A DNA stretch of 50,036 bases from Candidatus Binatia bacterium (GCA_040877705.1 JBBDNJ010000342.1:1-50036), one strand, 5' to 3'. Counted from the first letter of the stretch, positions 30,537-34,930 are shown. Translations and numbers: made by a program. The notes: generated from the letters alone by a model not told the origin.

Positions 30537-30845
30537 TCAGTAACGATCTCGCGGTGGCCTGCCGCCTCCGCCACTGCCGGATCGAAACTCTCGGGGGGCC
30601 TGTGGACGGGCCTCGCTGACCACGACGTTTCGACCTTCGAAATCGGTTCCGTTCAAAGCATTGATCGCGCGCTCGGCTTCGGCATCGGAACTCATCTCGA
30701 TAAAACCGAAACCTTTGGAGCGGCCGGTGAATTTATCGGTGACGATCCGGGCGCTGACCACCGAGCCGTGCTGCCCGAAATGCTGCTGCAGTCTTTCTTC
30801 CGTGACAGAGTACGGAAGATTACCCACATATAATTTCGCTCCCAT
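30537..30845 (-). CDS. RRM (RNP-1) RNA-binding protein with Gly/Arg tail
   Basis: KLYVGNL, RSKGFGFIEM, RBS AAGGAGG. Confidence 0.96.
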   Translation of the reverse strand: MGAKLYVGNLPYSVTEERLQQHFGQHGSVVSARIVTDKFTGRSKGFGFIEMSSDAEAERAINALNGTDFEGRNVVVSEARPQAPREFRSGSGGGGRPPRDRY

Positions 30846-30977: not shown

Positions 30978-31007
30978 AGCCTATCGAAAGTGCGGGGCTC
31001 TTGTCAA
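30978..31007 (-). promoter_or_regulatory. Candidate sigma70 promoter for the RRM gene
   Basis: TTGACA-18nt-TAGGCT. Confidence 0.5.
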
Positions 31008-31080
31008 ATATTTAAAGCGATCATGAACCGAGGTCCGGCGCTTGCGGCATGACGATCGCTGCGTTAGATAATCGACAGCC

Positions 31081-31371
31081 ATGGAAACCGTGCCCGTCAA
31101 TGCTCGCGTCCACTTAATCATCAGCGGCAGAGTACAAGGAGTCTATTTTCGCGCGTCGACGGTTCAGCAGGCCCGGCAGTTGCACGTAACCGGATGGGTG
31201 ATGAATTGCGGCGATGGTTCGGTCGAGATCGTCGCCGAAGGACCGACAGAAAAGCTTGACGAGCTCATCGCCTGGTGTCGCCGGGGACCGCCAGGAGCGC
31301 GGGTGATGAATGTGGCGGTCATCTGGGCAGATGCCGAAAACGATTTTCATAGTTTCAGTATCAAGCGGTGA
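31081..31371 (+). CDS. acyP: Acylphosphatase
   Basis: ISGRVQGVYFR, GWVMN..DGSVEIVAEG, GPPGARV. Confidence 0.96.
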   Translation: METVPVNARVHLIISGRVQGVYFRASTVQQARQLHVTGWVMNCGDGSVEIVAEGPTEKLDELIAWCRRGPPGARVMNVAVIWADAENDFHSFSIKR

Positions 31372-31424
31372 TCACGTCGAGGCGGAAGAACTTAGCATAG
31401 CAGATTGCTGAGTGGAAAGATGAC

Positions 31425-31461
31425 GACTGGTGAAAGGCATGGCTATCGCCTCTCACCAGTC
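31425..31461. terminator. Strong stem-loop between convergent acyP and the small peptide gene
   Basis: GACTGGTGAAAGGC-9nt-GCCTCTCACCAGTC, a 14-bp stem with one mismatch (G-U wobble on the minus strand). No long U tract. Confidence 0.55.
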
Positions 31462-31489
31462 AAGAACCTTCATTCGATAAGGTTTCGAA

Positions 31490-31636
31490 CTAATCGCTAT
31501 CAGGCTTCTCCGGCTTGGGCTCCGGCTTGGGCTCCGGCTCCTCCTGCGCGTAACTCATAGGCACCGCCAAATTAATGATCGAGCCGATCACGTTCAGGCC
31601 AAACACGATTGCTAACGCAAGCGCTAATTTCTGCAT
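31490..31636 (-). CDS. 48-aa secreted small protein (signal peptide plus 18-aa Pro/Glu/Lys-rich mature peptide)
   Basis: MQKLALALAIVFGLNVIGSIINLAVPMSYA|QEEPEPKPEPKPEKPDSD*. RBS AGGAGGT and sigma54 promoter upstream. Below the ORF-track cutoff. Confidence 0.85.
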   Translation of the reverse strand: MQKLALALAIVFGLNVIGSIINLAVPMSYAQEEPEPKPEPKPEKPDSD

Positions 31637-31688
31637 GTTTTCCACCTCCTTTCCAGCTGATGTTTTAATGGTTGTTCTGCGAGGATGC

Positions 31689-31703
31689 GCAAACGACGTG
31701 CCA
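31689..31703 (-). promoter_or_regulatory. Sigma54 (-24/-12) promoter
   Basis: TGGCACGTCGTTTGC matches TGGCACG-N4-TTGC, about 50 nt upstream of the peptide start codon. Confidence 0.88.
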
Positions 31704-31765
31704 GTGGTTCTGTAGGTAGATCAGCACGCAGGATAAAACTTTTTCGGTGTCACTGTTATTTTTAT

Positions 31766-31884
31766 TGTTGCAAGACGAAACACGCGAAGGATTGTGCGCT
31801 GTGGCGACAAGATCTAAGCATTCAGCTCTTATGATGATTCTATCTTGTGTTGTAAAAGCCTACATGCCGCGGTAAATTGCAACG
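31766..31884. promoter_or_regulatory. Candidate enhancer (bEBP) binding sites
   Basis: 17-bp TGTTGCAAGACGAAACA (31766-31782), TGTTGTAAAAGCCTACA (31848-31864) and reverse CGTTGCAATTTACCGCG (31868-31884), a TGT-N11-ACA type motif. Confidence 0.5.
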
Positions 31885-32003
31885 GCTTCGGACGGCGCTC
31901 ATCTCATGTTCACCTTCGAGGTAATCTTATTTGTTGGCCTTTTGCGGTCGTCCCACCAACACAGAACCGGTATGCTACTTGCTGATGCCTAGACGGCACA
32001 GTT

Positions 32004-33542
32004 ATGAAGCTAGGAACGAAACTCATTTTCGCCCTCGTGGTGACGGTGATACTCACTATGATCATTCACGGTCACTTGAGCATCCAACAAGACCAAGAAA
32101 ACGCAATGAGGGAAATCCGTGTTGGGATGAGGGGCTTTACTCGCGCTATCCAGAATTCCCTGAGGCACTTCTACGCCGATCGCCAGGATCTAAATTCGGC
32201 TCAGAACTTTCTCGATGCCATCGCTCCCAGAGGTAATATTCACGGCGTCATTGTTTATGATCTGAACGGTAAACTCGTCGCTCGCTCGGCTTCATTGACT
32301 TATCCCGACGACTTTCCGGCGCTTGACCCGACACCGATTTTCAAGCTCGATCCAGCGCCCACCCTCCGCTACGGCGAGGGCACAGAGGGTTATATTCGTG
32401 ATGACAAGACTCTGATTTATTATCGCATCGAGCCCATCTTCGACTCGCAGGGCAAAAACGTGGGAGCATTCGTCCTCGCGCGCCATGGAGCCGGGCTGAG
32501 GTTAAGCATGGAGGAAAGACGCGACCGGATCCTTGCGACGGCCTCGGCGCTCATGGCGCTTCTTTCCTTTTTGATATTTATAACGGTACGGCGCAACATC
32601 ACCCGCCCGATTAAACAACTGATCGAACGCATTCGGGAGATCGGCAAGGGGCGATGGGATCAGCGCATTGAAACAAACGGCCGCGACGAGATTGCCTCAC
32701 TCGCTGGAGAATTTAATCTCATGTGCGAGAAGCTGCAGGAGAGTCACGTCCGGCTGATGAAGGAGCAACAAGCGAAGCTTACGTTGGAACAAGACTTGCG
32801 CCATTCTGAGCGCTTGGCCTCGGTCGGACGGCTGGCCGCCGGAATAGCGCACGAGATCGGCACGCCTCTAAACATCATAGGAGGCCGGGCTGAATACCTG
32901 CTGCGTCGGCCAAGAAGCCCGGAAGAGTTCAAAGACAACCTGGGTGTCATCCGATCCCAAAGCGACCGCATTACCGCTATCGTTAGACAATTGCTCGAGT
33001 TCTCGCGGCGCCGGCAGCCCGTTTATCGGGCGGTCGACCTGTCCGCGCTGATCATGAATGTGAAGCGTCTGTTGGCGCCTCAGATTGAGGAGAAGTCAAT
33101 TCGGGTCGAGATGGATTCCCCCGATTCGCTACCGAGGCTTCAAGCCGATCCCGATTTGCTCCAACAGGTTTTTTTCAATCTCTTCTCCAACGCGTTTCAC
33201 GCCTTAACTCCTGGTGGCTCGATAAAAATTCACCTCGAGCCCATTCGCGACCGTCGTCGAGGCGCCCGCGAAAACGTCGAACCGCGATGGCTGCGCATCT
33301 GCTTCGAAGACAATGGTGCCGGGATTGCCGCGGACCATCTTGGCCGCATATTCGACCCCTTTTTCACCACTAAAGATGTCGGTGAAGGCAGCGGCTTAGG
33401 TCTATCCGTAGCTTATGGCATCATCGAGGACCATGGCGGTGAAATTCGGGTGGAAAGCGAGCCGGCCAAGTTTACTCGGTTTATCATCGAACTGCCGACG
33501 ACCCATCTGCAAGTGAATAGTGATGAGGAAAAAGTAGCGTGA
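32004..33542 (+). CDS. HAMP-domain sensor histidine kinase with extracytoplasmic sensor domain
   Basis: Two TM helices, HAMP, H-box AGIAHEIGTPL, N/G boxes EDNGAGI, FDPFFTTK, GSGLGL. Confidence 0.96.
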   Translation: MKLGTKLIFALVVTVILTMIIHGHLSIQQDQENAMREIRVGMRGFTRAIQNSLRHFYADRQDLNSAQNFLDAIAPRGNIHGVIVYDLNGKLVARSASLTYPDDFPALDPTPIFKLDPAPTLRYGEGTEGYIRDDKTLIYYRIEPIFDSQGKNVGAFVLARHGAGLRLSMEERRDRILATASALMALLSFLIFITVRRNITRPIKQLIERIREIGKGRWDQRIETNGRDEIASLAGEFNLMCEKLQESHVRLMKEQQAKLTLEQDLRHSERLASVGRLAAGIAHEIGTPLNIIGGRAEYLLRRPRSPEEFKDNLGVIRSQSDRITAIVRQLLEFSRRRQPVYRAVDLSALIMNVKRLLAPQIEEKSIRVEMDSPDSLPRLQADPDLLQQVFFNLFSNAFHALTPGGSIKIHLEPIRDRRRGARENVEPRWLRICFEDNGAGIAADHLGRIFDPFFTTKDVGEGSGLGLSVAYGIIEDHGGEIRVESEPAKFTRFIIELPTTHLQVNSDEEKVA

Positions 33543-34930
33543 AGGATTCAGCGCGCAGGGACCCCGTTGCCGGGAAAGCTCGCATTCTCGTCGTCGAAGA
33601 TGATCGGGAGATGTCCCGATTTTTGACCCAGCTTCTGAGCGAAGAAGGTTATGAGGTCGAAGTCGTGAACGACGGACCATCGGCCCTGGAAGCCTATCAA
33701 GGGGGATCTTTTGACCTGATTATCAGCGATCTCATGATGCCCCGAATGAAGGGGACCGAGCTGGTCCGCCGGCTCAAGGCTACCCACCCGGATGCGCTGG
33801 TGCTGCTGATTACCGCTTTTGGGACGATAGAAAGCGCCGTGGAGGCGATTCACGCCGGAGCGTTTCACTATCTCACCAAGCCGTTTCGGACCGATGAGTT
33901 GTTGATTCACGTTCAGCGATCCCTCGAACAGCATCAGCTTAAACAGGAACTCGTAAAGCTGCGCGAGGAGATGCGCAACCGCTATCAGTTTCAGAACATC
34001 GTCGGCCGCAGCGAAAACATGAAGAAGATTTTCGACACCGTTGCCCACATCAGCGATCTTCCCGCCAATGTACTTATCCTGGGCGAAAGCGGCACCGGCA
34101 AGGAAATGATCGCGCGCGCGATCCATCGCCATAGCGCGCGGGCGGAAGGCCCGTTTGTGCCGCTGAACTGCGCGGCCATTCCGGAAACACTGCTTGAAAG
34201 CGAGCTTTTCGGTTACTTGCGCGGCGCCTTCACGGATGCGCGCAAAGACCGGCTTGGACTGTTCCAGGAAGCCAGCGGCGGCATTCTTTTTCTTGATGAA
34301 ATTAGTGAGATTCCTCTCAATCTGCAGGCCAAGCTGTTGCGCGTCATCGAAGACAAGGAAGTGAGGCCCTTGGGAGCGAATCAATCAGAAAGAGTCGACA
34401 CACGGGTGGTGTCGGCGTGCAACCGCGATCTGGAACATTTAGTCGAGGAAGGCCGTTTCCGGCAGGACCTCTACTATCGTCTTAACGTCATCCGCGTCGA
34501 ATTGCCGTCGCTGCGCGAAAGACCGGAAGATATCCCGCTTCTGTCCGAGCACTTCTTGCGAAAATTCGCGCCCCAAACCAAACGAAAGCTGGACGGGATC
34601 GATCAGGATGCGATGGCCGCTCTCATGAGCTATCGATGGCCGGGCAATGTCCGGGAATTGGAGCACACGATAGAGCGAGCCGTGTTGCTCGGCAAAGAAT
34701 CAACCATTGGGTTAAACGATCTGCCGCCTCAGCTTGCGACAGCCGGCGAAAACACCTTGCCGCTCGTGGCAGCGGTTGGGCGCGCATATACCTTACGGGA
34801 TCTTGAAAGAGAATATATCCTGCGGGTGATCGAAAACACCCATGGGAATAAAACTGAAGCCGCCAAGATTCTCGGCGTCGACCGGACGACCCTTTACCGT
34901 AAGCTGGACGAGTATAAAGTCAAAGCTTAG
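33539..34930 (+). CDS. Sigma54-dependent NtrC/AtoC/ZraR-family response regulator
   Basis: REC domain (SDLMMP), GESGTGKE, GAFTDA, WPGNVRELE, Fis-type HTH. Confidence 0.97.
   Translation: MKDSARRDPVAGKARILVVEDDREMSRFLTQLLSEEGYEVEVVNDGPSALEAYQGGSFDLIISDLMMPRMKGTELVRRLKATHPDALVLLITAFGTIESAVEAIHAGAFHYLTKPFRTDELLIHVQRSLEQHQLKQELVKLREEMRNRYQFQNIVGRSENMKKIFDTVAHISDLPANVLILGESGTGKEMIARAIHRHSARAEGPFVPLNCAAIPETLLESELFGYLRGAFTDARKDRLGLFQEASGGILFLDEISEIPLNLQAKLLRVIEDKEVRPLGANQSERVDTRVVSACNRDLEHLVEEGRFRQDLYYRLNVIRVELPSLRERPEDIPLLSEHFLRKFAPQTKRKLDGIDQDAMAALMSYRWPGNVRELEHTIERAVLLGKESTIGLNDLPPQLATAGENTLPLVAAVGRAYTLRDLEREYILRVIENTHGNKTEAAKILGVDRTTLYRKLDEYKVKA

Follow-up and report, generated by a model that had tools for sequence, protein, structure and literature searches.

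To our knowledge, small exported proteins that tune a sensor kinase (MgrB, CpxP, ZraP, DbfQ) are known from few model bacteria and are almost never annotated elsewhere. In ZraP/ZraSR, a sigma-54-dependent periplasmic accessory protein is encoded divergently from an NtrC-family regulator and a membrane kinase, constitutes their main local target and feeds back on them, and CpxP is a small exported protein regulating its own kinase (passages of PMC10848872). MgrB, a protein of ~47 amino acids (aa) that belongs to the regulon of its own two-component system, inhibits its own kinase PhoQ (parts of PMC8404706), and DbfQ of Vibrio cholerae, a small periplasmic protein that bears a signal peptide and is encoded beside DbfRS, binds directly to the kinase's sensory domain (excerpts of PMC12714742). 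In PilA/PilS-PilR, a sigma-54 promoter and an NtrC-family regulator drive a small exported protein, which achieves autoregulation by interacting with the kinase of its own system (portions of PMC6058289). Here we describe a locus of this kind in a stretch of 50,036 nucleotides (nt) of DNA (JBBDNJ010000342.1:1-50036, GCA_040877705.1; hereafter the window) from the genome of Candidatus Binatia, an uncultured soil bacterium (5.46 Mb, 96% complete). A micro-open reading frame (micro-ORF) of 48 codons plus stop (31490..31636, minus strand) is positioned behind a sigma-54 promoter and divergent from the genes of a sensor histidine kinase (32004..33542, plus strand) and an NtrC-family response regulator (33539..34930, plus strand). 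The layout is that of zraP/zraSR, with products that are new, far smaller and without family assignment.

The micro-ORF and its conservation

The micro-ORF runs from an ATG at 31636 to a TAG stop at 31492-31490 and encodes the 48-aa product MQKLALALAIVFGLNVIGSIINLAVPMSYAQEEPEPKPEPKPEKPDSD. On the minus strand of 31300-32000 the order is sigma-54 box, 52-nt leader, AGGAGGT, ATG, ORF and hairpin, and all elements which the sequence-only reading had reported here (a 48-codon ORF with AGGAGGT, a sigma-54 box, a signal peptide ending SYA, an 18-aa mature part and a 3' hairpin) are indeed present. The ribosome-binding site AGGAGGT (31644..31650, minus strand) lies 7 nt 5' of the ATG, and a GGAGG-type site precedes every homologous micro-ORF among the 33 loci listed. 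The ORF listing also holds an alternative start, GTG 31645, giving a 51-aa form; ATG 31636 is preferred because its spacing suits the ribosome-binding site and the homologues begin with MKK. The promoter TGGCACGTCGTTTGC (31689..31703, minus strand), with GG at -24 and GC at -12, is the sole exact match in the window, where 6 matches to the pattern occur against 3.45 expected when one mismatch is allowed. Genome-wide, the exact pattern has 30 matches versus 14 for a reversed control, and rpoN was found in the genome at C358 (212 bits). Since the exact pattern alone is not beyond chance genome-wide, conservation of the box, and not the box itself, is what counts.

To assess this conservation, 41 genomes were compared, being the window's own and 40 relatives. 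A full-length kinase orthologue is present in 17 of them, all of one family (58-100% identity, E <= 6e-183), and the remaining 24 match the kinase core only. Two of the 17 kinase loci end at contig borders and hence were not counted; in the 15 loci whose upstream DNA suffices, an ORF of like design, 40-49 codons long, follows a sigma-54 box every time (15/15). A scan of all GTDB species genomes with the sensor-domain alignment returned 35 loci, and the union, after removal of 12 duplicates, comprises 35 distinct loci with >300 nt upstream. At 35/35 of these distinct orthologous loci, a sigma-54 box and, behind it, an exported micro-ORF lie divergent from the kinase, and 26 of the loci keep the type of micro-ORF seen in the window (A-type). 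The small signal-peptide ORFs with -24/-12 boxes that the sequence-only reading had expected beside homologous kinase/regulator pairs were thus recovered at every distinct locus, ORF and promoter being conserved together at all examined pairs. The box stands 55-120 nt ahead of the first micro-ORF in the 33 listed loci, with 260 nt in L016, and is also carried by L055 and L066, which are outside this list.

The reading frame itself carries the signature of selection. In a codon alignment of 24 sequences, the pairwise differences at codon positions 1/2/3 amount to 3947/2536/6864, and within the predicted mature part to 735/748/2252. Because third codon positions carry most differences, this points to a translated, selected sequence, and the micro-ORF is, judged by sequence comparison, a real gene under selection. 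A six-frame search with a profile of the peptide matched 16/41 genomes, all within the 17 kinase-positive ones, and 0/24 of the kinase-negative ones; the lone kinase-positive genome without a match is G002, whose contig ends 72 nt before the kinase. At strong E-values there is one copy of the peptide per genome, adjoining the kinase wherever the assembly permits, and in G001 the peptide and a truncated kinase lie on separate contigs. By this pattern of co-occurrence, the peptide gene is strictly coupled to the kinase/regulator pair. In these counts and in alignments A1-A3, G018 (locus L002, which shares with public record L039 all of the first 400 nt upstream of the kinase) is included, and in the counts G012 figures as an orthologue-free genome; none of the claims made here depends on G018 or G012 by itself. 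Neither a consensus sigma-54 box nor an exported micro-ORF is found upstream of G017:C203, a full-length paralogue of the kinase that is more distant (33% identity). The loci from the GTDB scan belong mostly to metagenome-assembled genomes (MAGs) labelled Candidatus Binatia or 'Deltaproteobacteria', with few bins under other phylum labels; next to MAGs labelled Binatia, there are those of L041, L040/L042/L064 and L062, labelled Chloroflexota, Deltaproteobacteria/Myxococcota or Thermodesulfobacteriota. Such mixed phylum labels within one kinase family probably reflect differences in labelling or binning and not a wide distribution.

A HMMER profile search yielded 58 representatives at E <= 1e-3 among 1.84 billion, of which 55 were inspected and consist mostly of a signal and a Pro-rich tail, a few looking read-through or frameshifted; the other 3 are proteins of 613-1610 aa that match over short stretches only. 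A word-index protein search had given 2 relatives only. The micro-protein is without a match in Pfam or NCBIfam, and the ESM Atlas was uninformative (best feature score 0.75).

The signal peptide and its cleavage site were called by rule-based reading, which divides the product into MQKLALALAIVFGLNVIGSIINLAVPMSYA (residues 1-30, signal-like) and QEEPEPKPEPKPEKPDSD (residues 31-48, predicted mature). The predicted Sec signal peptide (31547..31636, minus strand) has the n-region MQK, an uncharged stretch, Pro at -5 and S-Y-A at -3 to -1, and with P-M-S-Y-A before and Q after the cut it conforms to the Sec and signal peptidase I (SPase I) pattern. The predicted mature 18-aa peptide (31493..31546, minus strand) is acidic and Pro-rich, with an N-terminal Gln and the core PKPEKP. 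The family comprises 77 distinct sequences, 70 of them analysable after dropping 5 that are long, read-through or frameshifted and 2 without a recognisable site. Residues at -3/-1 obey the rule in 70/70 (SxA 50, VxA 10, GxA 4, AxA 3, TxA 2, IxA 1), and Gln occupies +1 in 65/70. The mature parts are 13-32 aa long (median 17) with a net charge of -6 to +1 (median -3). In alignment A3, the core residues P42, K44 and P45 vary hardly or not at all, and D/E stands at the end of most sequences. From these features we infer Sec export and SPase I cleavage after SYA, and the mature peptide probably bears an N-terminal pyroglutamate. In L048 (1527-1781, minus strand), an expanded Pro-rich peptide of 85 aa has extra PEQK/PEKS-like repeats ahead of a conserved PEPKPEKPDAE end.

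Next to this A-type, a second micro-protein family occurs behind the same promoter in relatives. This B-type, a mini-lipoprotein, is found in 11/35 loci (L040, L048, L050, L052, L053, L055, L064, L066, L067, L069, L070), of which 9 have the B-type alone and 2 have both types, in the order A then B in L048 and B then A in L066; the window's genome holds the A-type only and no B-type ORF. B-type products measure 39-46 aa (10 complete, L055 being cut by the contig end) and read ...LALAGC followed by PE(V/M)AQQ and a Gly/Ser-rich tail, so that the mature part starts CPE(V/M)AQQ, with a lipobox LAGC, LTGC or LGGC in 9/9 aligned ORFs and with G21, C22 and P23 invariant. Many of the B-type loci have the promoter in one strictly conserved form, TGGCATCGCAATTGC. 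Homology between A-type and B-type is not demonstrable, hhalign giving a probability of 21% that concerns the signal peptides only. When mapped on a 34-row tree of the kinase (L073, a fragment, was dropped), the states A, B and both need at least 5 changes, which suggests an ancestral A+B pair with subsequent differential loss, on a tree whose root is not established. In L016/L071, the 260-nt leader between box and ORF contains an apparent decayed remnant of a lipoprotein ORF (...RRICSASL, then stop), and because of this remnant loss of the B-type gene fits this lineage.

Kinase, regulator and candidate binding sites

The head-to-head partner proposed earlier, a HAMP kinase having an extracytoplasmic sensor together with an NtrC-type activator, is present. 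The kinase consists of a first transmembrane helix, a ~150-aa PDC/sCache-like periplasmic domain, a second transmembrane helix, HAMP, HisKA and HATPase_c. In an AlphaFold2 model of its residues 1-205 (mean pLDDT 83), an alpha/beta domain stands between two long helices, one N-terminal and one C-terminal; Foldseek gives the extracellular domains of WalK, DcuS and CitA as best matches in the PDB, and Pfam matches to Cache and CHASE4 stay below cut-off. Because of the model and these fold matches, we assign the sensor as a predicted PDC/single-Cache domain between two membrane helices. A complex prediction of sensor residues 24-180 (A2) with peptide residues 19-48 (A3) scored 0.00 in two control-free runs and is given no weight.

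The start of the regulator gene overlaps the kinase stop, and its product has a receiver (PF00072, 8.5e-30), an AAA+ sigma-54 activator (PF00158, 2.9e-70) and a Fis-type helix-turn-helix domain (PF02954, 7.6e-16). The GAFTGA motif, by which such activators contact sigma-54, is regarded as near-invariant. Here the contact loop reads GAFTDA and not GAFTGA (window 34200-34240, residues ~221-240), F and T being retained despite the G-to-D change. Of 52 loci (L001-L017 and L039-L073, duplicates included), 46 reach the region, and the loop is GAFTDA in 38 of these and GTFTDA in the other 8, so that every orthologue seen has what amounts to a natural variant of the contact motif. Among the genome's other activators, twelve have GAFTGA and one has GAFTNA.

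Upstream of the micro-ORF promoter, the intergenic region contains enhancer-like repeats. A proximal half-site GCGTGTTTCGTCTTGCAAC (31767..31785, unstranded; 14.8 bits) lies ~82 nt upstream of the -24 element, and many relatives have half-sites at a similar distance, ~72-103 nt upstream of the promoter. A distal 34-bp conserved element TTGCAATTTACCGCGGCATGTAGGCTTTTACAAC (31849..31882, unstranded) consists of two overlapping half-sites ~164-180 nt upstream of -24; across loci, its consensus is TTGCAATTTACATCGGCGTGTGGCTTTTTGCAAC and its distance from the -24 element ~160-200 nt. The right half of this element, GT(G/T)G-N6-8-TTGCAAC, recurs ~20 nt away and nearer the promoter, giving 3 copies in the window; in some relatives the half-site is a clear palindrome, GTTGCA-N3-TACAAC, and the positions of the sites relative to the promoter are conserved among relatives. 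The distal element scores >30 bits in 29/35 loci with a matrix trained on these same loci, and 3 of the 6 loci below 30 bits show it, by eye, with a 1-nt indel. It is a candidate regulator binding site common to both divergent genes. It was taken as an activator site and not as a promoter because a promoter scan was negative and the half-site recurs at other positions: a sigma-70 reading of the kinase strand (TTGTAA-N17-TAAATT) was rejected, 31000-32300 containing 0 sigma-70-like sites.

Scores of the site matrix at its training loci are circular, and only the genome-wide scan is independent. In that scan, the distal element contains the top-scoring half-site of the whole genome (23.3 bits), and of the 99 sigma-54-like boxes in the genome solely the one of the micro-ORF has two sites 40-260 nt upstream; the box at C221:1402 has a single marginal half-site, 91 nt upstream. 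The sole other site cluster (C322) was rejected as a regulon member, being inside an rpoB-like gene and taken as a chance occurrence, which leaves the window with the only intergenic cluster. The regulator thus appears, by site content, to have one sigma-54 target, a count obtained on a 96% complete genome with an arbitrary score threshold.

The kinase side of the intergenic region may also be served by sigma-54. A candidate weak sigma-54-like box CGGTATGCTACTTGCT (31968..31983, plus strand) begins 36 nt before the kinase start codon, and in 19/35 loci the kinase ATG is preceded, at 30-42 nt, by a box of this form, with variants such as TGGCAC-N5-TTGCT in L006 and CGGCAC-N5-TTGCA in L005. The kinase start codon is without obvious Shine-Dalgarno sequence and the box ends ~20 nt before it (31968-32003); the leader of the kinase mRNA may be very short.

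At the other end of the micro-ORF, a 16-bp hairpin (31424..31462, minus strand; -34.9 kcal/mol, z = -5.1), equalled in folding by 0/200 shuffles, is likely the terminator of the micro-ORF and may also serve the convergent acylphosphatase gene. The predicted transcript is ~270 nt and monocistronic, the next gene being convergent. A look through sequencing runs for 31300-33300 listed none of RNA, an outcome neutral as to expression. A hairpin with T-rich tail follows the micro-ORF in 20/32 relatives' loci according to a crude script, which overlooked the window's own hairpin owing to its tail. The neighbouring genes encode an RRM-type RNA-binding protein with a Gly/Arg-rich tail (30537-30845, minus strand) and the acylphosphatase (31081-31371, plus strand). 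An acylphosphatase-like frame, read by eye, also lies 3' of the micro-ORF in some relatives' loci. Among the flanking genes (ligA, RRM protein, acylphosphatase, rsmI) there is no exporter, peptidase, outer-membrane channel or processing gene. Elsewhere in the window's own genome (G000), a sigma-54 box TGGCATGGCCTTTGCG directly precedes an ORF of 167 aa (C221:895-1402, minus strand) in which a segment looks signal-like (...ANALFAQG), and boxes at C117:4758, C135:4560 and C139:23563 precede small ORFs with ribosome-binding sites that encode a 36-aa hydrophobic peptide, a 65-aa Flp-pilin-like and a 74-aa lipoprotein-like product. In all, 27/99 sigma-54-like boxes have an ORF of <= 90 aa, many probably by chance.

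Possible roles of the micro-protein

We propose a private sigma-54 circuit, running from the kinase via the regulator to an exported micro-protein that would act in the envelope and feed back on its own kinase, and we consider the odds of this circuit as a whole to be about even. The membrane kinase would detect a periplasmic cue via its PDC-type domain and phosphorylate the NtrC-family regulator, which, once bound to the GT(G/T)G-N6-8-TTGCAAC repeats of the intergenic region, would activate the sigma-54 promoter of the 48-codon gene. Its product would be exported by Sec and cut after SYA, whereby an 18-residue acidic, Pro-rich peptide, probably pyroglutamate-headed, would be freed into the periplasm. 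As the sole recognisable sigma-54 output of the system, the micro-protein could act at the envelope as an accessory that signals back to its own kinase, following the logic of ZraP/ZraSR, CpxP/CpxAR, MgrB/PhoQ and DbfQ/DbfS. The sequence comparisons give good support to activation by this very regulator: of the earlier claim that the two-component system activates the peptide, the promoter beside every examined pair, the enhancer-like repeats and the strict co-occurrence all stand, and the identity of the regulator itself follows by inference. Action of the micro-protein on its own kinase, proposed by analogy, is a tentative suggestion to which we grant somewhat less than an even chance.

Several points weigh against this circuit. 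The assignment of the regulator draws on adjacency and co-occurrence, in a genome that encodes at least 14 sigma-54 activators, any of which could in principle drive the promoter, and transcription, export and action on the kinase are all read from sequence and by analogy. The product may be an uncleaved membrane anchor, given its uncharged N-terminal stretch of ~18-23 residues with conserved polar residues. Two families without demonstrable homology behind one promoter, with at least 5 changes of type, disfavour a ligand-receptor fit in which the tail would be recognised with high sequence specificity. Finally, a loop whose sole output is its own modulator lacks an obvious physiological use, which favours an effector role.

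Such an effector or connector would act on another sensor kinase, a transporter or an envelope structure, with the kinase responding to an independent cue, and we regard this as unlikely overall, though deserving serious attention. As the sole detectable target of the regulator in the genome, the micro-protein should carry the physiological response; its mature part is under strong purifying selection, and two different micro-proteins stand behind one promoter. The EP/KP tail resembles the TonB spacer, the expanded tail of L048 weakly matching the TonB model (E 0.049, below cut-off), a likeness of composition only. Connectors acting on other sensor kinases are MzrA, PmrD and SafA. The SafA periplasmic peptide is mentioned in a part of PMC8404706. 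However, no candidate target was identified, and the strict physical and phyletic coupling to the kinase is equally expected of a feedback partner.

A variant of the circuit, which seems to us rather improbable, is that the kinase monitors the fate of its own exported micro-proteins, the SPase I-processed peptide and the Lol-pathway mini-lipoprotein being interchangeable, disposable reporter substrates. If true, processing, localisation or turnover of the products would be read by the PDC sensor, and 40-50-codon genes together with a sigma-54 two-component system would constitute a monitor of export or envelope integrity.

We judge it improbable that the product is an MgrB-like membrane anchor, of which the uncleaved N-terminal helix would contact the membrane helices of the kinase and the Pro-rich tail would be periplasmic. 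The uncharged stretch of 18-23 residues contains conserved polar positions (G13, N15, S19 and N/D22 in A3), the alternative B-type product is lipid-anchored in the membrane, and the transmembrane region of MgrB is needed for PhoQ binding (parts of PMC8404706). Yet four features are each typical of cleaved signal peptides: small residues at -3/-1 in all analysable members, a nearly universal +1 Gln, a Pro in the c-region of most members and, in relatives, Asp or Lys inside the would-be helix (e.g. IIDLATP, TITKLSYA).

Very improbable, in our estimate, is a diffusible signal, in which the processed peptide would leave the cell and be sensed by the kinase of neighbours, amounting to quorum-sensing-like autoinduction in a diderm. 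The sequence-only reading had raised such a loop, and it does resemble the cassette layout of Gram-positive peptide pheromones, generally known to have a peptide gene beside kinase and regulator; the conserved N-terminal Gln, the invariant PKPEKP core and the plausible control by the adjacent regulator would suit it as well. It became unlikely with the finding that the same promoter drives a lipid-anchored product in 11/35 loci, in 9/35 a membrane-bound lipoprotein only. Moreover, no exporter, peptidase, processing or outer-membrane channel gene adjoins, and a peptide of ~2 kDa exceeds what is generally taken as the usual porin limit.

That the transcript is mainly a sigma-54-dependent small RNA, with the ORF incidental or secondary, is hardly credible: the short transcript with its strong terminal hairpin would suit it, and such regulatory RNAs beside their own activators are generally known (Qrr1 by luxO, GlmY by glrK), but the excess of third-position differences, the conservation of amino acids, a strong ribosome-binding site that is likewise conserved, ORF lengths that vary with signal peptide and C-terminal motif kept, a 5' leader whose nucleotides are not conserved between clades and the lack of any Rfam match in 31000-32200 speak against it. 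Two further candidates were ruled out, namely a precursor of a cofactor or of a ribosomally synthesised and post-translationally modified peptide, by the Sec signal and the lack of maturation genes nearby, and an arrest-peptide or export-monitor leader for a downstream gene, by the hairpin and convergent gene that follow.

Comparison with described systems

The proposed sigma-54 circuit had been put forward as not described, which is consistent with our searches of the literature, Pfam and NCBIfam: the literature yielded no description of such a sigma-54 peptide circuit, nor of 'Binatia' with 'sigma-54', and the terms 'lipoprotein', 'signal peptide' and 'small protein' do not occur in the main text of a paper on the Desulfovibrio sigma-54 regulome, as far as the portion available extends (PMC4641369). 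The locus provides a comparatively validated case, in an uncultured soil lineage, of a two-component system whose whole detectable sigma-54 output is a single 40-50-codon gene, and in which two apparently unrelated micro-protein families fill one regulatory slot. It also indicates that -24/-12 boxes offer a route to finding micro-ORFs beside orphan two-component systems.

By structure, the closest likeness is to WalK, of which the extracellular domain is the best match of the sensor (9a5d, E 2.4e-07, TM score 0.70; then 5is1 and 4ywz), albeit at a sequence identity of 12-14% only. WalK is controlled by the membrane-anchored accessory proteins YycH/YycI, 9a5d being titled a WalK-YycH model. WalR is not a sigma-54 activator, and YycH/YycI are large proteins. 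PilA differs in that it is a type IV pilin and has a prepilin leader, PilS in having six transmembrane segments and no periplasmic domain, whereas the locus described here combines a Sec- or lipoprotein-type signal with a PDC sensor. DbfQ, insofar as the excerpts of its description allow the comparison, is alike as a small exported protein encoded beside its two-component system; the product here is a low-complexity mature peptide of 13-32 aa under sigma-54. The micro-protein shares with MgrB its size class and an N-terminal Lys-Lys with hydrophobic segment, and Pfam and NCBIfam searches gave no sequence relation to the MgrB family. MgrB is an uncleaved membrane protein with conserved periplasmic cysteines, whereas the micro-protein has a predicted cleavage site, no cysteine and sigma-54 control. 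PhoP is an OmpR-type, sigma-70 regulator. Should the peptide indeed act on its kinase, it would rank with the smallest partners of this sort, its mature part being 13-32 residues long.

The analogy with zraP/zraSR drawn by the sequence-only reading is apt, and the possible second sigma-54-like box facing the kinase extends it. With ZraP/ZraSR (HydHG) of E. coli and Salmonella, the locus has in common, by sequence, the divergent layout and activator-like sites in the common intergenic region. The proteins are distinct: the ZraR model scores 410 bits against our regulator, far below the equivalog cut-off of 760, and the ZraS model 195 bits against our kinase (cut-off 479), matching the kinase core only and leaving the sensor domain unmatched. 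The regulator differs furthermore in its GAFTDA contact loop. ZraP is a folded zinc-binding chaperone of roughly 140 aa, whereas the partner here, without Pfam family, would be an unstructured 18-aa peptide, too short for the CpxP/Spy/ZraP fold, or in relatives a mini-lipoprotein. In zraP/zraSR both divergent units are sigma-54-dependent with a common enhancer, and if the kinase-facing box is real, both divergent units here would likewise depend on sigma-54 and have one enhancer in common.

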